NCBI GenBank assembly: GCA_050011565.1
Contig: JBEKIW010000001.1
Coordinates: 640,207-704,206 of the forward strand
DNA: 64,000 bases
Direction: 5' to 3'
DNA from: Dehalococcoidia bacterium
Lineage (GTDB): Bacteria > Chloroflexota > Dehalococcoidia > GIF9 > UBA5629
This document shows, piece after piece, positions 27,373 through 45,021 of the stretch (positions within the stretch are counted from its first letter, which is position 1; every line of letters starts with the position of its first letter). The position numbers and the translations under genes are program-made. The notes beneath the pieces were generated by a model that saw only the letters and a program-made list of their open reading frames with translations, was not told the origin of the DNA and made no database searches.

Positions 27373-27374
27373 AC

Positions 27375-29479: not shown

Positions 29480-29931
29480 CTATGAATGAAAAAGTTACCG
29501 CTATCGTCAACAAATACAATGGTGACAGGGGACAGCTAGTTTCCATACTTCAAGATATCCAGACTGAATGCTATTACCTTCCCGAAGAAGCTTTGATTGA
29601 AGTAAGTGATACCATGGGCATTCCTGCCAGCCGTGTTTACGATGTGGCCACTTTTTTCAAAGCATTCAGTCTTGAACCTAGAGGTAAGCATTTAATCAAC
29701 GTTTGTCTGGGCACGGCCTGCCATGTCCGTGGTGGTAGCAGGGTGTTGGAAACTGTGGAACGATGTTTGTCCGTCAAGCGCGGGGAAACCACTAAAGACC
29801 GCAAATTCACACTGGAGACAGTTAATTGCATGGGCTGTTGTGCCGTGGGGCCGGCGGTGAAAATTGACGGCGATTATTATGGACATATGAGCACTGATAA
29901 AGTGGACGGTATATTAGCCAAATTTGAATAA
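29476..29931 (+). CDS. NuoE-like [2Fe-2S] thioredoxin-fold subunit (NADH dehydrogenase 24 kDa / HymA family)
   Basis: It has the NuoE fold with Cys ligands (CLGTACHVRGG...CMGCCAVGP). Its ATG overlaps the porB stop. Confidence 0.8.
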   Translation: MTMNEKVTAIVNKYNGDRGQLVSILQDIQTECYYLPEEALIEVSDTMGIPASRVYDVATFFKAFSLEPRGKHLINVCLGTACHVRGGSRVLETVERCLSVKRGETTKDRKFTLETVNCMGCCAVGPAVKIDGDYYGHMSTDKVDGILAKFE

Positions 29932-31806
29932 TTGCTAAAAGATGAAATGCCAAACCAGCTAAGTTCAAAACAAGATTTAGAGGCTCTACGAAAAGAGCTG
30001 ATAAAAGAAAGAAGGCCGGACAAGCCGCTAATTGCCATATGCAATGGTACTGCTTGCCGTCCTTACGGTTGTATCCACTTAACCGAGGCCATTAAACAGG
30101 AACTGGCAAAACAAGGCCTGGAGAATAAGATAGGACTGAGAATCACTGGTTGTCACGGGCTATGCGAGAAAGGCCCGATTGTAGTAATTCAACCGGGTGA
30201 CATTTTCTACCAGCAGGTAAAATTAGAGGACGTGCCTGAGATATTAAGTGAAACGGCTATTAAAGGCACTGTCATTGACCGGCTGCTTCACGCCGACCCG
30301 ATTACGGGCAACAAAGTTGTGCATAGGGATGAAATTCCGTTCTATCGGAAGCAAGTACGGAATATTCTGGGAAACAACGTCGAAATAAATCCTACGAAGA
30401 TAGAGGATTATATCGCTATAGGGGGCTATACAGCTCTAGCCAAAGCCTTGCTCGAAATGACTCCTGAGCAGATAATAGACGAAATAAAACACTCGGGATT
30501 AAGGGGGCGAGGCGGTGCTGGTTTCCCCACGGGATCAAAATGGGAATCATGCCGTCATGCCCCCGGGGATATAAAATACGTTATAGTAAATGCTGACGAA
30601 GGTGACCCGGGAGCCTATGCTAATGAAGGTTTGCTTTCAGGTAATCCGCACAGCGTACTCGAAGGTCTAATCATCGGTGCTTATGCCATCGGAGCCAAGC
30701 AGGGATATGTTTACGTCCGTAATGAATATCCTTTAGCATTGGCTAACGTGACGCTGGCTCTAAATCAGGCCGAACAGTCGGGGCTGCTCGGGGACAATAT
30801 CCTGGGCTCAGGGTTCGATTTTAATGTCCGTATCAACAGAGGCGGTGGAGCCTTCGTGTGTGGTGAGTCCACGGCCTTGATGGCATCGCTCGAAGGCAAA
30901 GTTGGAGAACCGAGAGCTAAATACGTTCATACGGTAGAGAAGGGGCTGTGGAATCGGCCGAGTGACCTAAACAACGTCGAAACCTGGGCCAATGTGCCAT
31001 TGATAATCAATAAAGGTGCCGATTGGTATCGAACTCTGGGCACTGAACACAGCAAAGGGACAAAGATATTCTCTTTAGTGGGCAAGATTAATAACACGGG
31101 CCTGGTTGAAGTTCCTATGGGGATAACACTCAGGGAAATCATCTATGACATAGGTGGCGGCATATGGGGAGGAAAGAGATTCAAGGCGGTTCAGACCGGC
31201 GGTCCATCAGGCGGATGTCTGCCAGAGAGCCTGCTTGACCTACCGGTAGATTTCGATGAGTTGTCTAAAGCAGGTTCCATGATGGGCTCGGGCGGCATGA
31301 TTGTCATGGATGAAACAACCTGTATGGTTGACATCGCCAAGTATTTTCTCACCTTCCTGGAAGAAGAATCTTGTGGTAAGTGTCTGCCCTGTCGCGAGGG
31401 GATAAAGAGAATGCGGCAGGTATTTGATGAAATAACGGAAGGCCGAGGCAGTGAAAAAGATATCGAGTTTCTGGAGCAGCTTTCAGCTACTTTAGTTGAT
31501 AGTTCACTCTGCGGGCTAGGCCAGACAGCGCCAAACCCTGTTCTGACCACAATGCGTTACTTCAGGGACGAGTACGAAGCTCATATAAAAGAGAAGAGGT
31601 GCCCCGCCGGCGTCTGCAAGGCTTTAATCCACTACTACATAATAGAAGAAAAATGCCCGGGATGTGGACTTTGTGTCAAAGAGTGTCCACAAGAGGCCAT
31701 AACCTTCATGGGCAAGAAAAAGCCGGTGGTTATGGATGAATCGAAATGTATAAAGTGCGGTGTTTGCGGCGACGTCTGTAAGCTGGATGCCGTAGGTAAG
31801 AGATAA
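29932..31806 (+). CDS. NuoF-like NAD(P)H-binding FMN/[4Fe-4S] subunit (51 kDa / HymB family) with N-terminal 2Fe-2S and C-terminal 2x[4Fe-4S] domains
   Basis: It has the GRGGAGFPTGSKWE NADH/FMN motif and a SLBB domain. C-terminal CPGCGLCVKECP and CIKCGVCGDVC ferredoxin motifs are present. Length is 624 aa. Confidence 0.8.
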   Translation: MLKDEMPNQLSSKQDLEALRKELIKERRPDKPLIAICNGTACRPYGCIHLTEAIKQELAKQGLENKIGLRITGCHGLCEKGPIVVIQPGDIFYQQVKLEDVPEILSETAIKGTVIDRLLHADPITGNKVVHRDEIPFYRKQVRNILGNNVEINPTKIEDYIAIGGYTALAKALLEMTPEQIIDEIKHSGLRGRGGAGFPTGSKWESCRHAPGDIKYVIVNADEGDPGAYANEGLLSGNPHSVLEGLIIGAYAIGAKQGYVYVRNEYPLALANVTLALNQAEQSGLLGDNILGSGFDFNVRINRGGGAFVCGESTALMASLEGKVGEPRAKYVHTVEKGLWNRPSDLNNVETWANVPLIINKGADWYRTLGTEHSKGTKIFSLVGKINNTGLVEVPMGITLREIIYDIGGGIWGGKRFKAVQTGGPSGGCLPESLLDLPVDFDELSKAGSMMGSGGMIVMDETTCMVDIAKYFLTFLEEESCGKCLPCREGIKRMRQVFDEITEGRGSEKDIEFLEQLSATLVDSSLCGLGQTAPNPVLTTMRYFRDEYEAHIKEKRCPAGVCKALIHYYIIEEKCPGCGLCVKECPQEAITFMGKKKPVVMDESKCIKCGVCGDVCKLDAVGKR

Positions 31807-31807
31807 G

Positions 31808-32527
31808 ATGGTAACTTTCAATATCGACGGCCGTGAATTTAAGGCTGAGGAAGGCCAGACGATACTCCGGGTGGCGAGAGAAAACGGCATTGATATACCT
31901 ACCTTATGCCATCACGAAGCCATTGAGCCCTACGGTGCCTGCAGGCTGTGTATTGTAGAAGTCTCCAAGGGGCGCCGCTCCAGAATTGTGACATCCTGCC
32001 TTTATCTGGTTGAAGAGGGACTGGAGGTAAAAACAAACTCGCCCAGGGTGATAAGTAATCGCAAAATGCTGGTGGAGCTGCTTCTAGCACGATGCTCGAA
32101 AAACAAGGTAATAAAGGAATTGGCTGCGCAGATGGGCATTGAGCAATCAATAATTAGACCGGAGTACCTGGAGGACAATGATTGTATGGTTTGCGGATTA
32201 TGCGTCAGGACCTGTGAACAAGTCGTTGGCGTTAGCGCCATCAGTCTGGTCAACCGAGGTATAACCAAAGAGCCGGCGTCGCCTTTCTTGGAACCGGCTA
32301 GAGATTGTATAGGTTGCGGCTCATGTTACTATGTATGCCCAACCGGCGCCATAAAGATGGAAGATAGAAACGGCACCAGAATAATATATAACTGGAAAGT
32401 GGAATTCAAGCTCAAGAAATGTAAAGTCTGCGGCAACTACTGGGCGCCGGAAAAGCAGTTAGAATACATCAGAAAAAAGTGGAATTTACCCGACGATTTC
32501 TTCGATATTTGCCCCACCTGCAAATAG
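31808..32527 (+). CDS. NuoG N-terminal-like iron-sulfur protein ([2Fe-2S] plus [4Fe-4S] only, 239 aa). It has no hydrogenase or formate dehydrogenase catalytic domain.
   Basis: It has a 2Fe-2S ferredoxin fold (CHHEAIEPYGACRLC) and 4Fe-4S motifs (CMVCGLCVRTCE, CIGCGSCYYVCPTGA). It stops at 32527, so no H-cluster domain follows. Confidence 0.7.
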   Translation: MVTFNIDGREFKAEEGQTILRVARENGIDIPTLCHHEAIEPYGACRLCIVEVSKGRRSRIVTSCLYLVEEGLEVKTNSPRVISNRKMLVELLLARCSKNKVIKELAAQMGIEQSIIRPEYLEDNDCMVCGLCVRTCEQVVGVSAISLVNRGITKEPASPFLEPARDCIGCGSCYYVCPTGAIKMEDRNGTRIIYNWKVEFKLKKCKVCGNYWAPEKQLEYIRKKWNLPDDFFDICPTCK

Positions 32528-32558
32528 CCATCCCATCTACAAACAGTCTTACAACTCC

Positions 32559-32587
32559 TTGACTCTATCGAACTAGTTAACTATACT
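32559..32587 (+). promoter_or_regulatory. Candidate promoter (TTGACT-N17-TATACT) of tRNA-Pro
   Basis: The hexamers lie 9 nt upstream of the tRNA 5' end. Confidence 0.4.
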
Positions 32588-32596
32588 CTTTGGCAA

Positions 32597-32672
32597 CGGG
32601 GTGTAGCGCAGAGGCTAGCGCGCATGGTTTGGGACCATGAGGTCGGAGGTTCAAATCCTCTCACCCCGACCA
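32597..32672 (+). tRNA. tRNA-Pro (anticodon TGG), CCA encoded
   Basis: The cloverleaf is CGGGGTG acceptor, anticodon loop UUUGGGA and T-loop TTCAAAT. Its 3' half (32628-32672) recurs twice downstream. Confidence 0.85.
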
Positions 32673-32871
32673 TAGATATCGAATTAGAGGCACCCCCGGT
32701 ACTTATACACTGAAGCTAAGTTTCACATCTCAGCAGACAGAGGCTGAGGCTCGGCAATTCACTTTAATCATTCAGCCGGAATCACTACCACAGTTGACAA
32801 CCACTTGAAGACCTACGGCACGGACCTTCGGGTTCTGTGAGCAACAATCTGGCTCATTGTACAACGGCCTG

Positions 32872-34827
32872 TTATTGATTCTGGCTCATTATCTCATCTA
32901 TCTTCGTCATAAGCGCATTAGGTTCGAAGGGTTTCTCGATGTACAGCACTCCTGTCATGTTAAGAAAAGTTCTGGTTGGCTTCCCAAGGATATCTCCGGT
33001 CATAATTAACAACCGGCTATCTATTGATTTGTCCATTCGCTGCAATTTCTCGTAGAGCTCGATGCCACTTACATCCGGCATCAGTATATCCATCAGGATG
33101 AGATCATACTTCTTATTCGTGAATACTTTTAGGGCATCATTGGCATTATTCACAGCGTCTACATCGTGTCCTTTAGTGGTCAGGAATTGCTCTAAAAATT
33201 TTAATAGTAACAGATCGTCATCAACTATGAGTACGCTACCTCGACGAGTGCAGACCTGCTGTATCTCCTTATCGGTAGCGCCTGGTATTTCAGCTGAGGC
33301 GAATTCCGACACTATTGGCAGTTCAACGATAAAGGTAGCTCCTTTGTCTGGCTTGCTTTGAGCGTATATTCGGCCATTGTGCTCCGAAATGATTCCATGA
33401 CATACACTCAAGCCTAGCCCCGTTCCCTCACCTATCCTTCTGGTCGTGAAAAATGGGTCGAAAATATTGCTAAGGTTCTCTGCGGATATCCCCGGCCCAT
33501 CGTCTTTAAACGATATCCTGATGGCATCATCAATGCACTCTGTCTTGACCAGAAGTGTCCCCTTACCGTGTGCTAGTTTCATTTCTGCCTCAGCATTCAA
33601 AATTATGTTTAAGAATACCTGTTGTAGCTGTCCCGGATCGGCAAGAATGTAGGGTAAGTTCGGAGCGAGTTCGGTTAGGACATTTATATTGGCAAGCCGT
33701 AGTTGATATTCACGCAATCTAAGCGTCCCGCTCACGATGTAATTGATATCAATCATCGTTCTCGTTGGCTGCATATTCCGGGCGAAGACAAGGAGTTGTC
33801 TAACGATATCAGCTACCCGATGACCCGCCTCACGAATATATCCCATTTGTTGCTTTATGTCCTCAGGTAAATCTTTATTACTCAGCAAATCCGAATAACC
33901 TACTATTGTGGTCAGAGGATTGTTAATTTCATGGCAAATACCAGCTGCCATCTGGCCTACGGTAGATAGTCGGCTAGCTAGCTGGGCTTTTCTTTCCATA
34001 TCACGTCTCTCATCTTCAACTTTCTTGCGCTCGGTGATGTCACGGCCGATTCCCCGAAAGCCGATGTTTTCGCCTTTCTCGTTCCTCATGAGGAAGACAG
34101 AGGTCTCAATGAATCCTCGACTGCCATCTTTTCGAATAACCTCGTGGTGCAAGTCTAGCACTGGCTCCCCTGTCCGGTGCACGCGACTGTACGCCTCAGA
34201 TATAGTCTTAGTATGCTCTTCAGGTGTGCACTCTCTATACTTCGTCCCCATCAACTCTTCCTTGGAATAACCCAAAAGGAAACACATTGCAGCATTAACC
34301 AGGGTAAAATTGCCAGCAAGGTCGATCTCGTAGTAGCCCTCTCTCATCTCTTCCAGAACAGTTCGGTATTTCTCCTCTGATTGCCTCAGTGCCTTCTCTG
34401 CCTGCTTGCGCTCACGCAGTATCTCGAAATCTCGAAGTTCACGTTCCACCGCCGGAGCCAGACGCGTCAGGTTACCCTTAATCACGTAATCCTGTGCGCC
34501 GGCCTTCATTATCATTACGGCGGTTTCTTCGCCAATGGCGCCGGACACCACAATTACTGGTATATCCTGGCCACTTTTCTTCAGTAACTTCAAGGCTCTG
34601 AAGGAATCCATCTGAGGCAGGGAATGATCCACCATGACCACATCCCAAGCCTGCTTCTTAAGGGCTGCCTTAATTTGCTCGGCATCTTCTACCCGCTTAT
34701 GAGATACCTCATAGCCTGCTCGCTCCAGCGCTCGGACTTCCAGCGCAGCGTCGCTTTCAGAATCTTCCACGATAAGAACCCTGATGTGCTTCTTCACAAT
34801 ATCCTCACGACACCGGAGGAGGCTCAT
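32872..34827 (-). CDS. Hybrid sensor histidine kinase (REC - PAS - HisKA - HATPase_c - REC)
   Basis: The N-terminal receiver has VLIVEDSESD...VVMVDHSLPQMDS. A PAS domain follows, then the H-box (MAAGICHEINNPL) and N/G boxes. The C-terminal receiver has VLIVDDD...LILMDILMPDVSG. Confidence 0.85.
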   Translation of the reverse strand: MSLLRCREDIVKKHIRVLIVEDSESDAALEVRALERAGYEVSHKRVEDAEQIKAALKKQAWDVVMVDHSLPQMDSFRALKLLKKSGQDIPVIVVSGAIGEETAVMIMKAGAQDYVIKGNLTRLAPAVERELRDFEILRERKQAEKALRQSEEKYRTVLEEMREGYYEIDLAGNFTLVNAAMCFLLGYSKEELMGTKYRECTPEEHTKTISEAYSRVHRTGEPVLDLHHEVIRKDGSRGFIETSVFLMRNEKGENIGFRGIGRDITERKKVEDERRDMERKAQLASRLSTVGQMAAGICHEINNPLTTIVGYSDLLSNKDLPEDIKQQMGYIREAGHRVADIVRQLLVFARNMQPTRTMIDINYIVSGTLRLREYQLRLANINVLTELAPNLPYILADPGQLQQVFLNIILNAEAEMKLAHGKGTLLVKTECIDDAIRISFKDDGPGISAENLSNIFDPFFTTRRIGEGTGLGLSVCHGIISEHNGRIYAQSKPDKGATFIVELPIVSEFASAEIPGATDKEIQQVCTRRGSVLIVDDDLLLLKFLEQFLTTKGHDVDAVNNANDALKVFTNKKYDLILMDILMPDVSGIELYEKLQRMDKSIDSRLLIMTGDILGKPTRTFLNMTGVLYIEKPFEPNALMTKIDEIMSQNQ

Positions 34828-35245
34828 TCAGCACAAGCCAATACAGTCCCAGGGTCTTTATGGCCTCCGCAAAATTCCCGAAATCAACCGGTTTTCGGAT
34901 GTAGCTATTGGCGCCCAGGTCATAGCTCGCTGCCACGTCGTGCTCCTCCTTTGAAGAGGTTAGTATTACCACCGGAAGCCTTTTGGTCTTTGTGCTTGCA
35001 CGTATGCGCCGCAACACCTCCAGCCCGTCAATCTTCGGCAGCTTGAGGTCCAACAGGATTAAAGCGGGCAATTGCTCCATGTCCCGCGCGGCGTAGGTTC
35101 CCGTGCCGAAAAGGTAGCTCAGCGCTTCTTGGCCATCCTCGGCGACAACCAGTTTATTAGTAACATGGCTTTGCTGAAGTGCTCGTCTGGTCAGGTCAAC
35201 GTCACTGCCATTATCCTCAACTAAAAGAATGTTATTGGGATTCAT
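34805..35245 (-). CDS. Single-domain response regulator (CheY-like receiver)
   Basis: ILLVEDNGSDVDL...LILLDLKLPKIDGLEVLRRIR...VVILTSS. Length is 146 aa. Confidence 0.85.
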   Translation of the reverse strand: MNPNNILLVEDNGSDVDLTRRALQQSHVTNKLVVAEDGQEALSYLFGTGTYAARDMEQLPALILLDLKLPKIDGLEVLRRIRASTKTKRLPVVILTSSKEEHDVAASYDLGANSYIRKPVDFGNFAEAIKTLGLYWLVLNEPPPVS

Positions 35246-37344
35246 GCAGCCTCCTTAAGTGTAAAATAAAAAGTTGCTCCATTGTCCACCATAGCATCTG
35301 CCCACAGGCGACCACCGTGGCGGCGAACAACGCGTTGCACGGTAGCCAGGCCGATGCCTGTCCCCGGAAACTCGGATGGTTTGTGCAACCGCTGGAACGC
35401 CCCGAACAGCTTGTCTGCATAGGCCATATCGAATCCCACGCCGTTATCACGCACGAAAAAGACTTGGTTGCCTTTGTCTTTAGTTCTGCCGAATTGTATC
35501 CGCGCGCTTGAGCATAAGCCGGTGAATTTCCAGGCATTTTCCAGCAGGTTGTACAGTGCGATGTCCAGCAGGCCGGCATCACACTGTGCCTTCAGATCAG
35601 GTTGGATAATGAATTCTGCCCGGCGGTCTGGCTGCGTATCCTGTAGACGAGTGGCGATGGTTTGCGCTATGGCTGTCAAATCCACCGGCTTCAGTTGCAT
35701 ATGAGCAAGAGATACCCGGGATAGCTGTAGTAAGGCATCAATCAAATCGTCCATGCGCTGTGCCTCGGAGCGGACACGGTTAAGATACTGGCAGCCTTGC
35801 TGGTCGAGCTTGTCTTGGTAGTCTTCCAAAAGTGCCAGGCTCCAGCCATCGATGCCACGCAGTGGCGCCCGCAAATCGTGTGAGACGCTGTAGACGAATG
35901 CCTCCAGTTCGTTGTTAGCACTCTGTAATTCCACCGTGCGCAGGGTTAGCTCCTGCTCTCTCTTTCTAAGCTGTTCCTGCAGGAACTCTTTCTCCATGGT
36001 CACAGCCACTTGGCTCGTAATATTTTCCACCAGGTTGATGTCCTCAAGCGTATACCTGCCAGATTGTCTTTTCTCCAGCAACAATATGCCGATCAGGTTA
36101 CCCCTACTGATTAGCGGGAAAAAGACCTCTACGTTTAAAGCTCTTACCCCATCTCCCTCCTCCACTAGCATGCCCCGAAACTCAGGCATTATATCCAACT
36201 TGTCCCAAGCCAGATATCTATTCTTTTGCCTTAGCCAATCCGCAATAGGACTGTCCTGTCCTATTCTTAAGGCAGGTTTGGCCTCATCTCCAGGCTCGGC
36301 AAACTCGATAACAAAATCACCGCTGATCGTTTCGGGGAGCATCAAATATGCCCGCTGGCAACCCAAGCTCCCTACGATGAGTGGCAGTAATCCGCCACCT
36401 AGGTCCTTCAGGTTGGAAACTCCACTTATCCTGTTTCCTACAAAATCAACCAACTTCTGTCGATAATCATAGCTCTCTCTATAGAAAAGTCGATCAACAA
36501 GGCGAGCAAACACATCCCTCAGTTGATATATAGCTATACCTATGATCAATGCTCCCAAAGTGGCTAAAGCCGTTACAATGGCCCGCTGGGGTACACGAGT
36601 CGCCAGACTAACCACCAAGTACAAGAACAGGTATCCAACAATAGCCACAGCAATTACCGCTATCCATGACAGCCCACGGCGTGCGACAAATCTGACATCC
36701 ACAAGTTGATATTGCACCGTGGCGTAAGTCCAAAGGCAAGCGGCAGCCAGATTACCAAAATGGTCTACAGGAAACCTCCTGAGGAACTCAGTAGCATTGC
36801 TGAGGGAGAACACCGCCATGATACACACGCCAATCAATATGTATGTGACACGCGCGCGCTGTACCTGGTCAGTCAGCGTCCGTAACTTCCGCAACAGGGC
36901 AACCACATTATCAGCCATGAGAAAGATAAGTGGCACGAATAGCACAGGAAACCAGATACCGATTGAAAGATGAACACCATTGCTCACTGTCACACTTTCC
37001 GGTATGTAGCCCAGGGCAGCCAGAACAATCGAGACTAACAGAAGAGTATAACCGACTGCTACTCCAGCGACATAACTCCCGTAGCCAAAACGACGCGAGA
37101 ACACATAAAGCTGTACCGCCATCCATGTGAATGCGACCGTCATAAGCCTGGCTAAAAGCATCTTGTTCTCTGGCAGGAAACTGCTATGGAGCAAGAACGA
37201 GGTCGAACTCCACACCATGGCAGCAGCCAGATACAAAACAAAAAACAGGTGCTGTCTCTGCCACGGACGGCTAGAGAGTACAATGATAAACAGGGGGATG
37301 TAAGCGATTACAGCAATTAAAGGAATTAAAGAATACCCAACCAT
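35242..37344 (-). CDS. Membrane sensor histidine kinase (multi-TM N-terminal sensor, GAF, HisKA, HATPase_c)
   Basis: The N-terminal ~300 aa have multiple TM helices. A GAF-like region follows, then the H-box (VYSVSHDLRAPLRGI) and G-boxes (GTGIGLATV). Confidence 0.85.
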   Translation of the reverse strand: MVGYSLIPLIAVIAYIPLFIIVLSSRPWQRQHLFFVLYLAAAMVWSSTSFLLHSSFLPENKMLLARLMTVAFTWMAVQLYVFSRRFGYGSYVAGVAVGYTLLLVSIVLAALGYIPESVTVSNGVHLSIGIWFPVLFVPLIFLMADNVVALLRKLRTLTDQVQRARVTYILIGVCIMAVFSLSNATEFLRRFPVDHFGNLAAACLWTYATVQYQLVDVRFVARRGLSWIAVIAVAIVGYLFLYLVVSLATRVPQRAIVTALATLGALIIGIAIYQLRDVFARLVDRLFYRESYDYRQKLVDFVGNRISGVSNLKDLGGGLLPLIVGSLGCQRAYLMLPETISGDFVIEFAEPGDEAKPALRIGQDSPIADWLRQKNRYLAWDKLDIMPEFRGMLVEEGDGVRALNVEVFFPLISRGNLIGILLLEKRQSGRYTLEDINLVENITSQVAVTMEKEFLQEQLRKREQELTLRTVELQSANNELEAFVYSVSHDLRAPLRGIDGWSLALLEDYQDKLDQQGCQYLNRVRSEAQRMDDLIDALLQLSRVSLAHMQLKPVDLTAIAQTIATRLQDTQPDRRAEFIIQPDLKAQCDAGLLDIALYNLLENAWKFTGLCSSARIQFGRTKDKGNQVFFVRDNGVGFDMAYADKLFGAFQRLHKPSEFPGTGIGLATVQRVVRRHGGRLWADAMVDNGATFYFTLKEAA

Positions 37345-37467
37345 TTGAATTAACCTTCTATTACCCTAATTATCGTATTATGTTTACAACTTCGAGCTTT
37401 GTCAACAATCGTTTAAGGTTAGCTGGGTGAAACATTGATGGTACCGCAAACAGAAGAACCTAACTTC

Positions 37468-39084
37468 TCACGTAGACACACATCCTGTCTTAACGCCCAG
37501 CAACGAAAGCGTGTCATCCGAGGGGTTGATATGAGGTGGTTTTATGTGGGCCAGATCTGCACCCTCAGCCTGACGCGCCGACATATAAGCTTGAAAAGCA
37601 CCTTGCGGGAGAAGACTAACCTGGATAGGCCTCACGCCCAGTATAGATTCCAAATCAGCATAATCTTTATCCAGTTTCTTAAGCTGTTTATGTAACTTTG
37701 ACGCAACTCTCTTATTACTCGCAGCACAACCGTCCTTGACCTCAAGATAGACGTGCAGCACCGGCCTTTCCTTAATTATCTCTTTGCGTACTGTCCAATC
37801 TTGATAAGGTATGCCGCTACTCTCTATTGCCTGCCAGACTACTCGCTCAGTCAACCTGGTGAAACCGGCGATATCGATGAGATCATCAGCCCGCCTCTCG
37901 AAAATCATCTGTGGAATATCTATGCCCAGCTTGTTGTTCCTAAGCGCAGTAATCTTTACCATATCGCCGATTCTATACCTGACCATCGCACCACCATGAA
38001 AATTAGTGAGGACTATCTCATAATTCTTATCAACTGCTAGCTCATCTATCAATATAGTCTTTGGTATATAGGAATTATCCAACCTCCACTTGAGGTGCTC
38101 ATCTTCAGGGATAAACTCGAGGAAGTTGAGATTAGGTATGAAGGTCAGGCCACCATAATCCCAGGTCTGAGAGGCTATGAGACTACCTTCTGCACAAGCA
38201 TAGGTTTCTAATGGGTATCGCCCCCATAAATAGCGTAGCCTTTCCCTGAGCACAGTGCTATCAGCACCACCACTCATTATTCCGTTTACAGACCAAAGGT
38301 CTCTGGGCAGCATAGGCCTCCGTTCCATTCTGCTCTTGACTAGCCCCCTGAGCAACCGAAATAGCGCTGCCGGCTGGGACAGCAAAGGCATAACCGTCAA
38401 TCCCCTTGACCGTGCACTAAACTGTTCGCCGACAACTATCAGCACAGTGGACAAACCAAAGAAGTAGTCAAACCCTCTGGACAAAGCAAGCCGAAAGCCT
38501 TCCCTGGTCCTCTGCTCAAACGACATGTTTTGAGCTTTATCCAAAGGCGGTAGATACGCTGCACCAACTTCTTGCTGCATAATTTGGACAAAGACGCCAG
38601 AAGCATAGGGCGCAGGGGCCACGGCATAGACGATTTTCGCGTGCTCCTTAGCCTTAGACACATCTCCCCTGCCATTACAGCTGGCAAAAATTCCGGTCCC
38701 GTACATCAGTATCGCTAGCTCATGGGCGAATTTTTCACTGTAAGGCACCCACTTATAAGGATATTCGCCAGACTTGCCTGAAGTATGTAGCCAGTGGGCA
38801 GATTTTGATGGCAGTACATCTTCTCGTTGTTCCAGAAGCTCTGGACAGTAATCCGAATACGTCGTCAGCGGTACCGTTCTACGGAATTCTTCCAAACTAG
38901 TTGGCATAGCACCACGCATCACCTTTCTCCCCAGTTCACAATTTCTGAGCAGCTCTAATTGATCTAGCAACAATCGCCGCTGGATAACCATAAACTGCTT
39001 CATGCTAAGGTCAATGTAGCCACAGCACATCTGCCACAGCTCTTCATTTCTGCCCTGCCGCAGTAGCTTCGTAATACTAGCCAA
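37468..39084 (-). CDS. GH3-family (ANL superfamily) acyl-acid amido synthetase-like protein
   Basis: The N-terminal region matches the GH3 pattern (FRRTVPLTTYSDYCPELLEQREDVLPSKSAHWLHTSGKSGEYPYKWVP, compared with GH3 vPvvtYeDikPyIeRi...f..SSGTSgGkpKliP). Length is 538 aa, as expected for GH3. Confidence 0.55.
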   Translation of the reverse strand: MASITKLLRQGRNEELWQMCCGYIDLSMKQFMVIQRRLLLDQLELLRNCELGRKVMRGAMPTSLEEFRRTVPLTTYSDYCPELLEQREDVLPSKSAHWLHTSGKSGEYPYKWVPYSEKFAHELAILMYGTGIFASCNGRGDVSKAKEHAKIVYAVAPAPYASGVFVQIMQQEVGAAYLPPLDKAQNMSFEQRTREGFRLALSRGFDYFFGLSTVLIVVGEQFSARSRGLTVMPLLSQPAALFRLLRGLVKSRMERRPMLPRDLWSVNGIMSGGADSTVLRERLRYLWGRYPLETYACAEGSLIASQTWDYGGLTFIPNLNFLEFIPEDEHLKWRLDNSYIPKTILIDELAVDKNYEIVLTNFHGGAMVRYRIGDMVKITALRNNKLGIDIPQMIFERRADDLIDIAGFTRLTERVVWQAIESSGIPYQDWTVRKEIIKERPVLHVYLEVKDGCAASNKRVASKLHKQLKKLDKDYADLESILGVRPIQVSLLPQGAFQAYMSARQAEGADLAHIKPPHINPSDDTLSLLGVKTGCVST

Positions 39085-39333
39085 AGAATACCTCCTACAT
39101 GATAATCAATATTACTTATAGAATGCTCCTCATCATTTGAACGGTACCTCTACTTGAAAAGGCTGCATACTCAGGCTGGCTTTTTTACAAGCTAAATTGG
39201 GCACCTTTTGCGATCCGGTGGGCTTCTGCCTCGACTGCGTACTTCCTTTTCTGTGAACAACCTCCACCCTCGCCTTTCCCAATGTATTGGATCACTTACG
39301 ACTCTATCCTATAATAGCTTATGAATCACCAAA

Positions 39334-39415
39334 TAGTACCTTAATAAGGGGTACTTTGGTACGGGTACTTTGGTAATAGTACTTTTGTGGTATTGGTACC
39401 TTATTAGTGCACCAA
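39334..39415. repeat. Tandem GGTAC-containing short repeats (GGTACTTTGGTA x ~4) plus the palindrome CCTTAaTAAGG, in the divergent GH3/ICMT intergenic region
   Basis: Read directly: agtaccttaataaggggtactttggtacgggtactttggtaatagtacttttgtggtattggtaccttattag. Confidence 0.6.
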
Positions 39416-39647
39416 GGCTGAATTAAGCCACCCGGAAATGAGTCTAAAGTCTGACGAGAAACAAATTGATGGATGCACTAAATGCGAGAATTGAGCTGGT
39501 TGTTATGGGTATGGTAGTCCTCGTCTGGCAAGTCCCAGAGTAAGAAACGTCGCAGCTTTCTAACGGGACATCAGTGGACGTGACCAAACCAAAAAATTGG
39601 GCGCGTATAGCTTGCCTCGGTTGCAACCTTGCAATAGAATATGAACC

Positions 39648-40229
39648 ATGATATACATTCTAATTGGTATTTGTGGCTTCCTGGTAGCCTATGCCTTTGA
39701 TTGGGCGAGCCTGGGGAACTTACGAGTAATGAAACAGTTGATTGGCTTGTTGGCGATCTGTCTTTTGGTCTATGCCACCATCATGGTTTGTGTCATTCCC
39801 GTAAAGTTACATCTACCATTTTTTACGCTGCCTTTCGGGGTTGGTCTTCTAGTGTTTTCCTTATGTCTGCTCGTTTACTCGATGTTTATCGAGATTCCCT
39901 TTCACAATACTTATGCCGAGAATGGAGTAAGCAATAAGTTAATAACCACCGGAACATATGCCCTGGTTCGCCATCCGGGAGTAATCTGGCTGGCTCTAGT
40001 CTATCTCTCCCTGGCACTGCTTTTCCCATCCACCACGCTGTTCCTCGCTGTCATCGTCTGGTTAATCATGGACATCATCATTGTCACACTACAAGACAAG
40101 CTATCATTCCCAAAGATGTTTCCTGCTTACCGCCGGTACCAACTGAAAACACCTTTTCTTATTCCTACCAAGCAAAGCATATCAGCGTGCTTAAGAACAA
40201 TAGACCCCCGAATTAAAGTGAGAAAATGA
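39648..40229 (+). CDS. Isoprenylcysteine carboxyl methyltransferase (ICMT/PEMT)-family membrane methyltransferase
   Basis: It has 4-5 TM helices and the C-terminal motif LITTGTYALVRHPGVIWLALVY, typical of the ICMT / phospholipid methyltransferase family. Confidence 0.6.
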   Translation: MIYILIGICGFLVAYAFDWASLGNLRVMKQLIGLLAICLLVYATIMVCVIPVKLHLPFFTLPFGVGLLVFSLCLLVYSMFIEIPFHNTYAENGVSNKLITTGTYALVRHPGVIWLALVYLSLALLFPSTTLFLAVIVWLIMDIIIVTLQDKLSFPKMFPAYRRYQLKTPFLIPTKQSISACLRTIDPRIKVRK

Positions 40230-40636
40230 TAGAAAAGAAGCGTCTGTGTTCCCGTCTAAAAATCTACTGTACATGAGAAACGCTTGTGTCAGGTTGTACA
40301 TAAAGAACGTCAAACCAATTTGGAGTTTGAGCGGACGCCAGAAGTGGCAGCCATGAGCGAGTTCTCTCCTTACTTTACATAATACTTAGAAATAGGCTTG
40401 CACGACCATCCTTTTAAGGAGAAGGGGATACAGGGACGAGGAGGATTGGCTTTGGATCAGCACCATCTTCTGTTTGACTTCTCTCATAATCTCCATCGCA
40501 ATGACACTGGCACTCTTGACACCGTCTTCCTTTCACTAAATCATTACATCTCGTCTTGAATAATACAACAAATTCTCGTGTTATCTGGGTGAACAAACGC
40601 TTGGTTTGTAAAATACCAATAATCATATATGTACCA

Positions 40637-40665
40637 TTGACTTATATTCTAATTTTAGCTACGAT
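40637..40665 (+). promoter_or_regulatory. Promoter-like TTGACT-N17-TACGAT immediately upstream of the hairpin/att repeat, module A/B junction
   Basis: It has the same architecture as the tRNA-Pro promoter. It could drive usp and the DUF1646-like gene. Confidence 0.3.
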
Positions 40666-40677
40666 TTAAAGCTGAAA

Positions 40678-40701
40678 GGAGGCAAGCGGTCTCCGCCTTT
40701 T
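40678..40701 (+). terminator. Conserved hairpin (GGAGGC-aagcg-GTCTCC) plus T-tract element preceding att repeat copy 2
   Basis: The 6-bp stem with 5-nt loop is followed by gccTTTTg. A near-identical element lies at 43612-43637. Confidence 0.35.
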
Positions 40702-40712
40702 GCTTAGCCTGC

Positions 40713-40757
40713 TTTGGGGCCATGAGGTCGGAGGTTCAAATCCTCTCACCCCGACCA
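40713..40757 (+). repeat. Direct repeat of the tRNA-Pro 3' half (att-like, 44/45 identical), copy 2
   Basis: tttggggccatgaggtcggaggttcaaatcctctcaccccgacca matches tRNA-Pro 32628-32672 (tttgggaccatg...). Confidence 0.8.
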
Positions 40758-40794
40758 GGCAAGTCAGCAAGGGATTTCGCCTTCGAGTCTGCTT

Positions 40795-41280
40795 TTGAAA
40801 GGAGCGCAGGTGTATCGTAGAATTATGGTGCCTCTCGATGGCTCTAAACTGGCAGAATGTGTTCTTCCCCATATCGAGGCGATAGCGAAATTAAGCCAGG
40901 CAAGCATCGAGTTAGTTCACGTGATAGAACCTCTTGAATTACCTACTCGCGGGGGCATCGCTTTGAGTATCGACGACTTAAAGCAAATCGAGGTACATAC
41001 CAAAAATGACGCTGAAAGCTATCTCCGTGAAATTGTGGAACGACTAAAACTCGCTGGCATAAAGGCTCGTTCAAAAATACTTACTGGAAAAGCTGCTGAC
41101 AGCCTCATTGACTACATACATAAGAGCAATTTTGACCTTGTCATTATGGCTACTCACGGCCGCTCCGGGATATCCCGGTGGATCTGGGGAAGCGTAGCTG
41201 AAAAGATACTGCACTCTTCCTCGATTCCGGTATTAATAGTGCGGCCTCCGGAATGTATTCCCGGCTCTAAAACTCGTTAA
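40795..41280 (+). CDS. Universal stress protein (UspA family)
   Basis: MVPLDGSKLAECVLPHIEAIAK...VIMATHGRSGISRWIWGSVAEKILHSSSIPVLIV. An RBS (aaaggag) sits upstream, with an alternative GTG start at 40810. Confidence 0.8.
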   Translation: MKGAQVYRRIMVPLDGSKLAECVLPHIEAIAKLSQASIELVHVIEPLELPTRGGIALSIDDLKQIEVHTKNDAESYLREIVERLKLAGIKARSKILTGKAADSLIDYIHKSNFDLVIMATHGRSGISRWIWGSVAEKILHSSSIPVLIVRPPECIPGSKTR

Positions 41281-41397
41281 CCGCTCCCAAATACAACTAA
41301 GGAGACTTCCTGCATCATGGGAGAGGGATTATTTTTATTCATTTACCGATAAGAACTCATATAGTGAATCAACGTATTTAATACTGAGGGATACGAC

Positions 41398-42489
41398 ATG
41401 GAAATTGTTCCCAATGAGCCAGTACTGTATATGGTTATAGGGCTTTCTGTCGTTGTGCTATCTGTACTGGTCCTACCCTTCAGAGTCAAAAAGATCGAGC
41501 AAAACTTAGAGCCATTCTTTCTGGTAATGGGTGTAATTGCAGTAACCATTTCCGGGCTCTGGAACTGGGAACTGGCCAAAGAAGCCCTTAAAGCCCCCGT
41601 AATGATTGGTGCCATCCCTGTAGGAATCTTTCAGGTAGTATTGATATTCGGCCTTCTAGTTCACTACTTCAACAAGGCCTTCTGCAATGGGATTATGTCC
41701 CTGGCTAACAAACTCGGGCCAACCACATTTATTGCCTTATTAATAATTGCGTTAGGGCTTATCTCCAGCGTCGTCTCGGTTATTGTCACAGCTTGTATTC
41801 TGTCGGAAGTCATAGCCGCACTTCCATTTAAAAGAAGCGACAAGATAAAGATAGTGGTAGTTACCTGCTTTGCGATGGGTCTGGGTGCAGGCTTAACCCC
41901 TCTGGGTGAACCTCTTTCCACAATCCTGGTTCAAAAGTTAGCCGGGCCACCATATAATGCTGGCTTCCTATTCCCGTTTCAAAATCTCGGTATCTACATA
42001 ATTCCAGGCGTTATAGCTCTAGCTGTTTTCGGAGCCATACTTATTGGCCGAAAGGTAAATTTAAAGGCAGAGGATATTGAGTCTGAATACAATGAGACTC
42101 TTAAAACAGTCATCATCAGAGCAGTTAAAGTTTATATTTTCGTCGCTGCTCTAATACTGCTCGGTGAAGGTTTAAAGCCATTAATCGTGTGGTATTTCAC
42201 TAAGATTCCGGCCTGGGCACTGTTCTGGATTAATTCACTGTCAGCAATTCTCGATAATGCCACTTTGACCGCAGTGGAGATAGGCCCGACTATGGCTATG
42301 CCCCAAATTATCAGCGCTGTTATGGCTCTACTCATTGCCGGAGGCATGCTGATACCAGGCAATATTCCAAACATAGTAGCCGCTGGGAGACTTAAAATAA
42401 AGATGAAGGAATGGGCAATAATCGGAGTGCCTATCGGACTAGCTCTAATGATTATCTATTTCGCAGTACTGATACCACTTCTCTTTTGA
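41398..42489 (+). CDS. Polytopic membrane protein, putative cation transporter (DUF1646-like)
   Basis: It has ~10 TM helices. The N-terminal pattern KKIEQNLEPFFLVMGVIAVTISGLW resembles DUF1646. I assigned the family from memory. Confidence 0.45.
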   Translation: MEIVPNEPVLYMVIGLSVVVLSVLVLPFRVKKIEQNLEPFFLVMGVIAVTISGLWNWELAKEALKAPVMIGAIPVGIFQVVLIFGLLVHYFNKAFCNGIMSLANKLGPTTFIALLIIALGLISSVVSVIVTACILSEVIAALPFKRSDKIKIVVVTCFAMGLGAGLTPLGEPLSTILVQKLAGPPYNAGFLFPFQNLGIYIIPGVIALAVFGAILIGRKVNLKAEDIESEYNETLKTVIIRAVKVYIFVAALILLGEGLKPLIVWYFTKIPAWALFWINSLSAILDNATLTAVEIGPTMAMPQIISAVMALLIAGGMLIPGNIPNIVAAGRLKIKMKEWAIIGVPIGLALMIIYFAVLIPLLF

Positions 42490-42593
42490 AAAGGTATAGC
42501 GTAATGTTACATTCCGATCACTGTGAAGGAATATTGAAGGATAAATAAGATTGCGCTATACTCATCTTTGTAGGTGGCAGTAGCAGGGTTTAA

Positions 42594-43532
42594 ATGATGA
42601 CTAGAATATTTATGTTGTGTCTATTCGCCGTCTTACTAATAGTTGGTGCTTGTACTACTCCACCGGAGCAAAAGGCCGTGGACGGCGTGACAAGCGGTAC
42701 AAGCGGTACTAAATATTTCCTTTACGGCGTCTGGGGCAACTCTTCCTCAGACATCTTCGCCGGGGGATTTAATGGCACCATCCTTCACTACAACGGTAAG
42801 ACGTGGGGTGCCATGACAAGCGGCACCACAAACGCCATTTATGACATCTGGGGTAACTCCTCCTCGGACATCTTCGCCGTGGGGAGAGATGGTACCATAC
42901 TTTATTACGACGGCAAGGCCTGGGGTGCTATGATAAGTGGAACCATACAAAACCTTTATGGCACCTGGGGCAGTTCCTCCTCAGACATCTTTGCCGTTGG
43001 TAGTGGTGGCACCATCCTTCACTATGGCGGCGAGACTTGGGGCACTATGAAAAGCGGCACCGCAAACGCCCTTTATTATATCTGGGGCAGTTCCTCCTCA
43101 GATGTCTTCGCCGGGGGATTTAATGGCACCATACTGCATTACGATGGCAAGGCCTAGGGCACTATGATAAGTGGAACGGTAAATGACCTTTATGGCATCT
43201 GGGGTAGTTCCTCCTTAGACGTCTTTGCCGTTGGGAGTGGTGGCACCATCCTGCACTACGATGGCAAAGCCTGGTACGCCATGACAAGCGGAACCATAAA
43301 TGATCTTTGGTGCATCTGGGGTAGCTCCTCCTCAGATGTCTTCGCCGTGGGATTTAATGGCACCATTCTTGAGTGCGATGGCGACACTTGGAGCGCCATG
43401 ACAAGCGGCACCACAAACGCCCTTTATTACATCTGGGGTAGCTCCTCCTTAGATGTCTTCGCCGTGGGGTTTAAAGGCACCATCCTACACTACGACGGTA
43501 AGGCCTGGGGCACCATCACAGGCAACAATTAA
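42594..43532 (+). pseudogene. Repeat-containing predicted beta-propeller lipoprotein, interrupted by an in-frame TAG at 43155-43157
   Basis: It has a signal peptide with lipobox (LLIVGAC) and ~8 tandem ~41-aa repeats (IWGSSSSDVFAVG..GTILHYDGKAWGAMTSGT). ORF 42594..43157 and ORF 43164..43532 share a frame. The repeat consensus ...DGKAW... reads ...DGKA*... here, a TGG to TAG change. Confidence 0.6.
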
Positions 43533-43571
43533 CAATAGTCAAAAAGTGTAGGAGATGTAATCCAAACGATG

Positions 43572-43600
43572 TTGACTATTCCTTCCCACGTCCATATAAT
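43572..43600 (+). promoter_or_regulatory. Consensus sigma70-like promoter TTGACT-N17-TATAAT upstream of hairpin/att repeat copy 3. It points toward the convergent lexA cassette.
   Basis: Both hexamers and the 17-nt spacer are perfect. No plus-strand gene lies downstream. Confidence 0.35.
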
Positions 43601-43611
43601 TTGAAACGGAA

Positions 43612-43637
43612 GGAGGCAAGCGATCTCCGCCTTTTTT
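43612..43637 (+). terminator. Conserved hairpin plus T6 element (second copy). It is a possible terminator for the beta-propeller gene and/or an element-end motif.
   Basis: ggaggcaagcgatctccgccttttttg. It is homologous to 40678-40701. Confidence 0.4.
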
Positions 43638-43646
43638 GTAGCTTGC

Positions 43647-43692
43647 TTTGAGACCATGAGGTCGGAGGTTCAAATCATTTCACCCCGGACCA
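43647..43692 (+). repeat. Degenerate direct repeat of the tRNA-Pro 3' half (att-like), copy 3
   Basis: tttgagaccatgaggtcggaggttcaaatcatttcaccccggacca. It has ~4 differences plus a 1-nt insertion relative to the tRNA 3' half. Confidence 0.7.
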
Positions 43693-43726
43693 TAGATTGT
43701 AAGCCTTTCCGTTCATGAACCCACAT

Positions 43727-44014
43727 CTACTGGCAGAAAGGGCACTTCACAGAAGAGCCGATTACTGTAGCTTTAACATGTATCCTGCCGTGACGACTGC
43801 AGGTGAGCTGATAGTAAGCTCGAACTACTTTAGTGCTGGTATCTTCCAATACTGCCGGGGCCGGGAAATAACTCATATTGTAAAACGTCTCTTTTTTCCC
43901 ATTGCCGTTATATGAGGCGCCACATTTGGGACATTTGGTGGCATCGGGTAATGCAATGCAACCGCACCTCGAACATTGGATTGTGTCTTTTACTACCTGT
44001 ACCATTTTGAGCAA
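43727..44014 (-). CDS. Small zinc-ribbon protein (CxxC...CxxC N-terminal, CPFC C-terminal), 95 aa
   Basis: It carries CSRCGC...CPKCG and a C-terminal CPFCQ. A strong RBS (GGGAGGAGG) sits ~10 nt upstream. It lies downstream of lexA on the same strand. Confidence 0.5.
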   Translation of the reverse strand: MLKMVQVVKDTIQCSRCGCIALPDATKCPKCGASYNGNGKKETFYNMSYFPAPAVLEDTSTKVVRAYYQLTCSRHGRIHVKATVIGSSVKCPFCQ

Positions 44015-44087
44015 ACCTCCTCCCTTAAAGCAACGACATCAAATTACGTTCAACACTTGTCCTATCGATGATTTGCGGGCTTAAGCC

Positions 44088-44339
44088 CTACTCGCAAATC
44101 CGTCCTAGATACCAGGAATTGGACGCTGTGTCGCGATAAATATCATAAAGACCTTTGCTGGTCCTGACTCTAAAGTAGTTCTTTAAATTTTCCTGTTCAA
44201 AAAGCTGTTCTGATACCCGCCACTGCTGGTATATTCTGTTTACACGCTCAGCTTTGCCATTCCTGCTGATAGTCAGTGGCGTGCCCTCGATATTAGCGGT
44301 TACCCTTAACTCCTCCGGTTTTTCAAGCAGTTTAGCCAT
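44088..44339 (-). CDS. Stand-alone DUF4113-like protein (resembles the C-terminal domain of ImuB), 83 aa
   Basis: TISRNGKAERVNRIYQQWRVSEQ...NYFRVRTSKGLYDIYRDTASNSWYLGRI resembles the ImuB C-terminal pattern (F.WRG..H.V.......EWW...DYFRV....G...W..RD....WYLHG), recalled from memory. A GGAGG RBS sits 6 nt upstream. Confidence 0.45.
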   Translation of the reverse strand: MAKLLEKPEELRVTANIEGTPLTISRNGKAERVNRIYQQWRVSEQLFEQENLKNYFRVRTSKGLYDIYRDTASNSWYLGRICE

Positions 44340-44394
44340 TTCGAACCTCCGTAATTTATTTTAGTAAAGACAACTATGGCCTCTTATTCTCGAT

Positions 44395-45021
44395 TCATAG
44401 TTTTCTGATAACCCCAACGACCTTCCCCTGGACCTCAACATTTTGGGGATTGACATAGAGCGGCTTCATACTGGCATTAGACGGCTGAAGGCGAATCATC
44501 TCTTTCTCTCGAAAGAGCCTCTTGAGAGTAACTTCCTGCTTGTCTTTTAGCCAGACAGCAACCATATCGCCATCATCAGCTGTTTGTGCCGCTTCCATTA
44601 AGACAATATCACCGTCATCAATTAACGCGTCTACCATAGAAAGGCCTTTAACTTTCAAGGCATAGACTTCCTTCCCGGTAATCAGATCCTCGGTTAGATC
44701 TAATGCCTCTGCGGCATCTTTTTGCCATGTATCTGAATCGGGTACAGGTATGGGCTCGCCAGCGGCAATGTAGCCTAAAAGCGGCACTCTAACAATATGT
44801 TTCCTGTCAAGGAGTTGGATGCTTCTAAAAATCTCCGGGTCCCGATGTATGTGGCCTTCTCTTTCCAGTATGTTCAGATGATGTTGAACGACCGCGGTTG
44901 AGCTGATATTGCAGCCCTTCAATATATCTCTAACTGTGGGTGCGTAACCTATGTCTTCAATAAAAGCGCGGATAAACTTAAATATCCGCTGTCTGGTCTC
45001 ACTTACACCCGGCTTTCTCAC
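44395..45021 (-). CDS. lexA: LexA repressor (S24 peptidase)
   Basis: It has a winged-helix N-terminus, an Ala-Gly cleavage site (GYIAAGEPIPV), and the catalytic Ser (LKVKGLSMVD) and Lys (VTLKRL). It has a GTG start with an aagga RBS. Confidence 0.85.
   Translation of the reverse strand: MRKPGVSETRQRIFKFIRAFIEDIGYAPTVRDILKGCNISSTAVVQHHLNILEREGHIHRDPEIFRSIQLLDRKHIVRVPLLGYIAAGEPIPVPDSDTWQKDAAEALDLTEDLITGKEVYALKVKGLSMVDALIDDGDIVLMEAAQTADDGDMVAVWLKDKQEVTLKRLFREKEMIRLQPSNASMKPLYVNPQNVEVQGKVVGVIRKL

Follow-up and report, generated by a model that had tools for sequence, protein, structure and literature searches.

Cis-mobilizable elements (CIMEs) have lost integration and transfer genes, keep both attachment sites (attL and attR), and form tandem arrays behind an RNA gene's 3′ end, with newer units located at the intact target. 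CIMEs and their tandem accretion have been described for the ICESt1-related elements of Streptococcus and have been raised for the ssrA islands of Dehalococcoides (PMC5704250; PMC3146451). Here, we analyzed a 64-kb stretch of Dehalococcoidia DNA (hereafter, the window), in which the 3′ part of a tRNA-Pro(TGG) gene recurs as direct copies that bound two groups of accessory genes, module 1 and module 2. Stacks of integrase-less units that keep attachment (att) sites are already known from RNA-gene 3′ ends, and the island in the window is one more such case. It probably arose by two successive site-specific integrations of integrase-less, CIME-type modules at tRNA-Pro(TGG), and both modules appear to belong to a previously undescribed element family of Dehalococcoidia.

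Both modules are free of integration and transfer genes, as are CIMEs. Module 1 lies between two closely matching copies of the tRNA 3′ part (44 of 45 positions identical), and the right-hand site of module 2, degenerate in the window, is nearly intact in a relative (L091; labels of this form denote compared loci and contigs). In contrast to CIMEs, any mobilization of the modules is hypothetical, and the window holds no functional partner element; the host belongs to another phylum, the target is tRNA-Pro from the anticodon loop to the 3′ end, and the right ends carry a conserved promoter-like site and hairpin that are undescribed for CIMEs. This shared right-end motif ties the modules to a locus with a Val-specific integrase (L198), and an integrase-bearing Pro(TGG) element was not recovered.

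Tandem islands downstream of a small-RNA gene, with direct repeats of its 3′ end and with some units lacking integration modules, are also found at ssrA in Dehalococcoides (PMC3146451). These occur in the same bacterial class as the island described here, but have a tmRNA target, a 20-bp repeat, and the serine recombinase DsiB in a conserved module; no tmRNA or resolvase-type genes were found in our island. Tycheposons of Prochlorococcus are a further case of tRNA-proximal island growth (10.1101/2020.12.28.424599), and resemble our locus in the repeated integration beside a tRNA gene, the partial tRNA copies between units, the niche-adaptive cargo, the presence of degenerated elements, and a population heterogeneity that is highest beside the tRNA. 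However, their hallmark recombinase and replication (primase/helicase) modules are absent from both modules here, their host lineage is unrelated, and a hairpin-promoter signature is unreported there.

For the right ends, the closest counterparts are ICEclc (with its promoter Pcirc), ICEKp1, and ICEEc1, integrative and conjugative elements (ICEs) in which the integrase gene (int) uses the tRNA promoter when integrated and an outward promoter from the opposite end of the element when circular (PMC5812530; PMC13023037). A predicted outward promoter beside the att site at the int-distal end and stem-loops in the leader recur in our elements, and in related loci int likewise directly follows the tRNA gene, so that it could be driven by the tRNA promoter while integrated and by the 3′-end promoter while circular. 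In the window, outward promoter-like sites at the att-adjacent ends (40637-40665 and 43572-43600) are found at the sequence level only, whereas the promoters of those large conjugative elements of Proteobacteria were verified experimentally. Our modules also differ in lacking conjugation genes, the window in lacking int, and the leader in being nearly invariant across different tRNA targets.

Copies of the tRNA-Pro 3′ end and their context in relatives

The intact tRNA-Pro(TGG) gene, recognized by both ARAGORN and Rfam, lies on the + strand at 32597..32672, in the attL position. Its last 45 nucleotides (nt), from the anticodon loop through the encoded CCA (copy 1, 32628-32672), recur on the + strand at the junction of modules 1 and 2 (copy 2, 40713..40757; 44/45 identity to copy 1, with an A to G change at the last anticodon-loop position as the sole difference) and again at 43647..43692 (copy 3), which is degenerate, with 3 substitutions and a 1-nt insertion. 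In blastn-short searches, E-values within the database of loci were 1e-17 for copy 2 and 1e-10 for copy 3, and successive copies start 8085 and 2934 nt apart. Aligning the copies and their flanks as the original prediction had proposed confirmed the positions and identities of the three direct copies. A scan of the whole window at Rfam gathering thresholds returned five tRNAs and nothing else. Left of copies 2 and 3, about 85 nt are held in common that do not occur in the tRNA gene. We rejected a split-tRNA or tRNA-like reading of the half copies, given that the 5′ acceptor strand is missing and an intact tRNA-Pro is present.

Searches for mobility genes in the island gave concordant negatives, in agreement with what had been predicted for both modules: Pfam identified no integrase between 28.5 and 49 kb, and in the whole window neither a jackhmmer profile of related integrases nor tblastn with six tyrosine recombinases (all E > 0.1) recovered an integrase or a remnant. 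Conjugative transfer genes were found neither in the window nor in the inspected related loci.

Relatives were gathered from GTDB genomes and assemblies via the gene of a 239-amino acid (aa) Fe-S protein upstream of the tRNA; all were Dehalococcoidia, and the order from Fe-S protein to tRNA-Pro was kept in all. The empty site anticipated by the original prediction was present in L008, L014, and L092 (80-89% identity in the flank protein), in which tRNA-Pro is followed within ~100 nt by the genes for a Zn-ribbon protein, an 83-aa protein, and LexA. Closer relatives were occupied to different degrees. L091 (flank protein 95%) has module 2 alone, with an intact repeat-protein gene, the tRNA and a much better preserved, nearly intact counterpart of copy 3 flanking it, while L012 and L088 (97-98%) retain only the Usp and DUF1646 genes of this module, the repeat-protein gene and the right-hand copy having been lost. 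In L046 (98%, from a partial gene), the left end of module 1 precedes unrelated cargo, and L010 and L011 (82-84%) have other cargo downstream of tRNA-Pro. Module 1 was seen only in the window's own population (L001, L004, and L005). L012, L088, and L091 lack it, with breakpoints inside the repeat: positions 1-10864 of L012 match window positions 21803-32672, and 10814-12613 match 40707-42500, so that the alignment reaches the last base of the tRNA gene (32672) and resumes at 40707. Logan short-read contigs of the window's species (L002, L003, and L006) stop inside the tRNA or at copy 2, indicating that the 45-nt repeat breaks assemblies; the absence of the island on short contigs is thus not evidence for an empty site.

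The 3′ ends of the tRNA genes themselves distinguish occupied from unoccupied sites. Unoccupied tRNA-Pro genes have no encoded CCA and end in ...CACCCCGA (...CCCCGA), followed by a T- or C-rich flank, while CCA is encoded in every occupied one, often followed by TAGAT. L137 carries the 111-nt right end of module 1 (92% identical), and its half copy keeps the native CCA-less end and runs into a flank like that of L092. As read from the sequence, this junction is what site-specific integration predicts, with the element supplying the 3′ end at attL and the original end displaced to attR. Together with the empty sites, the independent presence and absence of the modules, and the breakpoints inside the repeats, it supports the earlier proposal that the repeats are att sites, and the occurrence of module 2 alone in L091 supports two successive insertions.

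A promoter-hairpin signature at the right ends of modules

The sequence shared left of copies 2 and 3 has a fixed order: a promoter-like site, a hairpin with a T-run, an 11-nt linker, and the anticodon loop. At the conserved right end of module 1 (40602..40712, + strand, shared with other elements), a consensus scan placed the promoter-like site TTGACT-17-TACGAT at 40637-40665, and the leader GAAAGGAGGCAAGCGGTCTCCGCCTTTT occupies 40674-40701, with the hairpin at 40678-40694 and a T-run, 11 nt before copy 2. At the right end of module 2 (43572..43646, + strand; 98% identical in L091 and 89% in L114), the corresponding features are TTGACT-17-TATAAT at 43572-43600 and the leader AAGGAGGCAAGCGATCTCCGCCTTTT at 43610-43635 (hairpin 43612-43628), followed by the linker. 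The hexamers are kept between the two sites and the spacers have diverged. In both, (G)AAAGGAGGCAAGCGrTCTCCGCCTTTT, a short hairpin plus T-run, begins 7-9 nt past the promoter-like site.

Ends of module 1 were found on elements with other genes. Its right end (~105-111 nt) closes different cargo in L137, L184, L140, and L171, with 84-92% identity. The non-coding block at its left end (32673..32860, + strand), which starts with TAGATATCGAATTAGAGGC, is 94% identical over 188 nt in L046, where entirely different cargo follows, and L009 has a similar start.

We scanned metagenome contigs for GGAGGCAAGCGNNNTCCGCCTTTT and recovered at least 131 copies on at least 120 contigs from sediment metagenomes, most of them short (1-5 kb), with up to 5 copies per contig. 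Across these copies, the 28-nt core GAAAGGAGGCAAGCGGCCTCCGCCTTTT, which folds into a 6-bp stem with a 5-nt loop (-11.6 kcal/mol), is almost invariant; most variants in the hairpin arms are of the G.U type (17 copies), and one is a compensated A-U. A sigma-70 match of 9/12 or better was present in 91 of 119 copies, compared to 2 of 119 in a control region, and the -10 hexamer of matching copies ends 11-12 nt before the hairpin. Because the promoter spacers are not conserved, we infer selection on the promoter itself. The linker between T-run and anticodon loop has a constant length of 11 nt, and the adjoining tRNA segments are of at least six types, namely Pro(GGG) in 52 copies, Pro(TGG) in 23, Val(TAC) in 22, Val(CAC) in 7, Ala(GGC) in 3, and Met(CAT) in 2. 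These halves run through the T arm in ~60% of copies and stop soon after the anticodon loop or stem in the remaining ~40%.

An intact tRNA of the same type was found 0.55-9.4 kb upstream on the same strand in 10 contigs, with one to five cargo genes in between, none of them an integrase gene; examples encode an alcohol dehydrogenase, a leucine-rich repeat (LRR) protein, a DNA methylase with a partner gene, a KaiC-like ATPase, a PHP-AAA protein, and unknowns. Clustering of open reading frames (ORFs) within 4 kb of the motif revealed no recurrent neighboring protein family, and Pfam searches of 150 motif-neighboring ORFs returned diverse metabolic, transport, and defense genes and one integrase.

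A known origin of the motif was not apparent. Rfam returned nothing for 40500-43800 at E<=10, indicating that the hairpin-half is not a described RNA family, and nhmmer with a 30-nt core detected no further copies in the window. Viral contigs in IMG/VR had zero matches to the hairpin plus half, the attL junction, or the bare tRNA half. When the hairpin plus Val half was compared to GenBank phages by BLAST, all matches fell on phage tRNA genes and none on the hairpin, so that an origin from known phages is unsupported. Taken together, the promoter-hairpin signature apparently defines a large family of elements or cassettes with at least six tRNA specificities that is new to the literature.

The leader starts with GAAAGGAGG, which is followed by the 6-bp hairpin and the T-run. 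The cry3A 5′ stabilizer binds the 3′ end of the 16S rRNA and blocks RNase J1 there. We take GAAAGGAGG to be the STAB-SD 9-mer of this stabilizer from Bacillus thuringiensis. The cry3A 5′ stabilizer is among the elements described in PMC4113751. Apart from the 6-bp hairpin and the T arm, folds of the predicted transcripts contained no global structure of unusual stability.

Two further arrangements were observed among the motif contigs. Several hairpin units with halves of different tRNAs occur 0.2-3 kb apart in L134 (1215-4407), L136, and L117, the last with at least 5 motif copies. A recurrent variant (L103, L111, L121, L130, L163, and L175) has a Pro(TGG) core that ends after ..CCATGAGGTC and continues into the conserved non-tRNA sequence TTTGCCCAAAAGACGCCTTGCCTGAACATTTGGCC..., and may represent an att form without the tRNA 3′ end.

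Tyrosine recombinases beside tRNA genes in related loci

Among the matches listed, an integrase was seen in 3 of 120 motif contigs (L198, L196, and L143). In L198, cargo, promoter, hairpin, Val(TAC) half, CCA, and, after ~115 nt, a gene for a 309-aa tyrosine recombinase follow one another on one strand, and genes for an IclR-type regulator and a Liv-type ABC transporter come next on the same strand; L196 and L143 contain fragments of related integrases near the motif. The L198 recombinase had >1000 relatives at E <= 0.001, of which the best 120 were 65-97% identical, with named organisms all from Dehalococcoidia/Chloroflexota. In the contexts examined, these homologs are encoded 105-140 nt after an intact tRNA-Val(TAC) or tRNA-Arg(TCT), and int lies directly downstream of the tRNA/att in L198, L213, L214, L216, and L218-L227. 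The first genes after the tRNA/att in the window are a convergent histidine kinase gene in module 1 and usp in module 2.

Indirect evidence for recent movement of an integrase-bearing element came from L214 (9615-20930) and L216 (267-11577). These share 11,063 nt at 100% identity, a stretch that begins within tRNA-Val(TAC) and takes in the 309-aa integrase and a polysaccharide biosynthesis cluster. The two loci have unrelated upstream genes, and their tRNA-Leu, tRNA-Arg, and tRNA-Val 5′ parts have diverged; all 24 differing alignment columns precede the anticodon arm of tRNA-Val. Judging from this alignment, L214 and L216 appear to represent a very recent integration of one element in two hosts, with the putative crossover falling between D loop and 3′ end.

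L218-L227 and L213-L216 also share a 5′ untranslated motif, ..GCAACTGCTTTnCC..GCACG..ATGTAGCnCAAAGTTGTAG.., between the tRNA 3′ end and the integrase start codon. It lies 100-140 nt upstream of the start and is kept for both Val and Arg targets.

Proposed history of the island

We propose that each integration involved a crossover in or near the anticodon loop, by which the incoming element would bring its own tRNA 3′ part with encoded CCA, rebuild the gene, and push the previous 3′ part to its right end. Module 2 would have arrived first: several close relatives have it too, and in the window it is decaying, as indicated by a nonsense codon and the degenerate right repeat. Module 1, which is confined to the window's population and adjoins the intact tRNA, would have integrated later at that gene. 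This order agrees with the known pattern in which newcomers insert at the functional gene and older units are pushed away (10.1101/2020.12.28.424599; PMC5704250). As cargo-only derivatives, the modules, if mobile at all, would now depend on an integrase provided in trans.

An outward sigma-70 promoter and, 11 nt from the att core, a 28-nt leader would make up the right end of the family. By analogy to ICEclc and ICEKp1, this promoter may read across the joined ends of an excised circle and enter the element's first gene, which in complete members would be the integrase gene. In an array, it may instead read into the next module. The promoter-like site of module 1 faces across copy 2 to the co-oriented Usp operon, which starts 145 nt downstream and which it might transcribe; in relatives without module 1, the Usp operon stands directly behind the tRNA promoter. 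The 5′ hairpin may stabilize the transcript or, together with the T-run, attenuate it.

Several observations weigh against this history. No integrase adjoining any Pro(TGG) copy was found, and the link between motif and integrase consists of one intact case of the Val type (L198) and two fragments (L196 and L143), of which the one in L196 is divergent from the motif. In the integrase-bearing loci, no hairpin-half was found within 6-10 kb downstream, and no complete element was observed with both of its ends. Of the genes downstream of the motif, 26 are on the same strand and 38 on the opposite strand, which weakens the idea of a promoter that drives downstream genes generally, and the hairpin plus T-run also fits a terminator pattern. 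In L134 and L136, Val halves are interleaved with Pro(GGG) halves at distances of 200 nt to 3 kb, which is not predicted by a simple array at one tRNA. Moreover, a hairpin-related leader (GGAAGGAGACAAGCGGCTCCC in L213, 9540-9605; AAAAGGAGGCAAGTGACTCCC in L214, 9550-9614) directly precedes an intact tRNA-Leu, where it follows the native promoter of the tRNA-Leu/Arg/Val operon; L216 has the promoter without the leader. The motif is therefore not exclusive to element ends, and the element motif may have derived from a tRNA-operon leader. Copy 3 carries CCA and TAGAT, unlike the CCA-less end of more distant relatives, and the differences among strains could stem from homologous recombination between repeats or exchange of flanking DNA.

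Two roles for the signature were considered and set aside. A promoter that generally drives the next gene is unsupported by the orientation counts given above. An outward promoter that restores transcription of downstream tRNAs was dropped because the targeted tRNAs are the last in their operons (Pro in Arg-Pro and Val in Leu-Arg-Val).

Alternative explanations

The modules could instead be fixed, dead remnants of integrase-bearing elements, with strain differences due to old events, repeat recombination, and deletions, and with the promoter-hairpin as a relic. We consider this a possible, if rather unlikely, explanation. It would account for the degeneration of copy 3, the nonsense codon in the repeat-protein gene, the deletion of this gene and the right repeat in L012 and L088, and a window without integrase, and the single difference between copies 2 and 1 falls inside the presumed overlap region. 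However, module 1 is missing from three relatives whose flank proteins are 95-98% identical, favoring a recent gain, and its ends are 84-94% conserved in elements with unrelated cargo. The maintenance of promoter and hairpin over at least 131 copies with diverged spacers argues for selection and against a relic.

A more far-reaching and doubtful alternative is that the modules are functional cassettes of cargo, promoter, hairpin, and tRNA half, normally integrase-less and mobilized in trans by an integrase encoded elsewhere in the genome, for instance beside another tRNA, with tRNA genes as integron-like collection sites. In line with such cassettes, an intact tRNA and a hairpin-half enclose modules of 0.55-8 kb without an integrase in 10 contigs and in the window, and some of these modules form arrays of 2-4. 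The rarity of integrases among motif contigs, the conservation of ends while cargo is swapped, and the family integrases at syntenic positions beside tRNAs also fit. Most halves carry the element-type CCA, which points to internal junctions. On the other hand, the lack of an integrase says little, given that most motif contigs are short; a single integrase would need activity on six different tRNA cores, circular cassettes were not observed, and the Pro(TGG) site yielded no integrase. In its full form, for which we see little probability, this explanation would amount to an integron-like cassette system in sediment Dehalococcoidia, in which 309-aa tyrosine recombinases residing beside tRNA genes capture, stack, and exchange small integrase-less modules at several tRNA genes, every module having its own att core and the near-invariant 28-nt leader or recognition hairpin, and the hairpin would be the common element recognized across tRNA specificities. 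The analogy to integron cassettes lies in small, mostly integrase-less units stacked at one site with a hairpin-forming recombination-site region at one end. Unlike in integrons, there is no intI, attI, or Pc platform here and no integrase beside the tRNA; the repeats are tRNA segments, a promoter is present in each unit, and the hairpin is conserved in sequence, whereas attC sites are conserved in structure and not in sequence.

It is still less probable that the hairpin and tRNA half form a small-RNA gene of their own, ~85 nt in length and transcribed from its own promoter, the spread of which explains the repeats. The strongly conserved promoter directly upstream, the leader start GAAAGGAGG with its STAB-SD resemblance, the G.U and compensated arm variants, and downstream genes that are not co-oriented with the motif would suit such a gene. 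Against it, boundaries of insertions and deletions in relatives fall exactly at the repeats, about 40% of copies end early, just past the anticodon loop or stem, the acceptor 3′ strand lacks a pairing partner, Rfam offers no match, and folds of the whole transcript are of no unusual stability (z-scores -0.2 to -2.5).

Finally, remnants of a local tRNA-Pro duplication without any mobile element, for which one could cite the TTGACT-17-TAnnnT promoter-like site at a similar distance before all three copies, are a hardly credible source of the repeats, because copies 2 and 3 have on their left no tRNA 5′ half but a motif that also accompanies halves of five other tRNA types, and because CCA-bearing ends contrast with native CCA-less ones; the empty sites and the independent presence and absence of the modules in relatives likewise contradict this source, which the original prediction had named as a possible refutation.

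Gene content of the modules and flanking features

The cargo of module 1 spans 32872..40229, and Pfam bore out the gene identities predicted for it. On the - strand, these are a hybrid histidine kinase (REC-PAS-HisKA-HATPase-REC; 32872-34827), a REC protein (34805-35245), a 7TM-GAF histidine kinase (35242-37344), and a GH3-like protein (37468-39084), followed on the + strand by a PEMT/ICMT-like protein (39648-40229).

In module 2 (cargo span 40758..43532), every gene is on the + strand. Pfam confirmed the predicted Usp (ORF 40795-41280, with a likely start at GTG 40810) and DUF1646 protein (41398-42489), but the label of beta-propeller lipoprotein for the third product was not confirmed, as no Pfam family matched. 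Repeat analysis identified the latter as a 39-aa-repeat protein (42594-43532), encoded by six or more tandem 117-nt repeats. The gene is cut by an in-frame TGG to TAG change at 43155-43157 that recurs in two independent assemblies of the species (L005 and L006); it is intact in L091, encoding 312 aa.

To the right of copy 3, the 25 nt TAGATTGTAAGCCTTTCCGTTCATG (43693..43717, + strand) represent either pre-insertion flank or a remnant of the left end of a further element. This 25-mer recurs after the intact tRNA in L088 and after a half in L184. In L088 (10863-10920), TAGATTATAAACCTTTCCGTTCATG and then the Usp leader come after the intact tRNA, while in the window the 25-mer sits after copy 3 and a different left end precedes usp (40758-40810). 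The conserved chromosomal flank (43727..45021) then encodes, on the - strand, a Zn-ribbon protein (43727-44014) and LexA (44395-45021), both identified by Pfam, with the 83-aa ORF between them (44088-44339).

Upstream of the island, the consensus scan placed the promoter-like site of the native tRNA-Pro, TTGACT-17-TATACT, at 32559..32587 (+ strand), and this site is kept in relatives. In the window's clade, 6.1 kb with POR, NuoE/F-like, and Fe-S genes separate tRNA-Arg(CCG) from tRNA-Pro(TGG) (26393-32672), with no evident repeat, while in other Dehalococcoidia (L096, L113, and L165) the two tRNA genes are ~25 nt apart.

Implications

By itself, the island is an ordinary case of accessory sensory and stress genes gathering beside tRNA genes. 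The genomes of uncultured Dehalococcoidia are streamlined, and little is known of how these bacteria exchange genes. The signature described here, composed of promoter, GAAAGGAGGCAAGCGGCCTCCGCCTTTT, 11-nt linker, and tRNA 3′ part, is short and easy to search for, and flags the right ends of integrated modules in these organisms. Applied to metagenomes, it could chart the flexible gene pool and how this turns over; it could also serve to match cargo modules to a specific integrase family and to test the generality of the logic of proteobacterial ICEs, in which a promoter at the far end drives the integrase gene of the circle. If mobilization in trans were true, these modules would constitute a cassette-capture system outside the integron paradigm.

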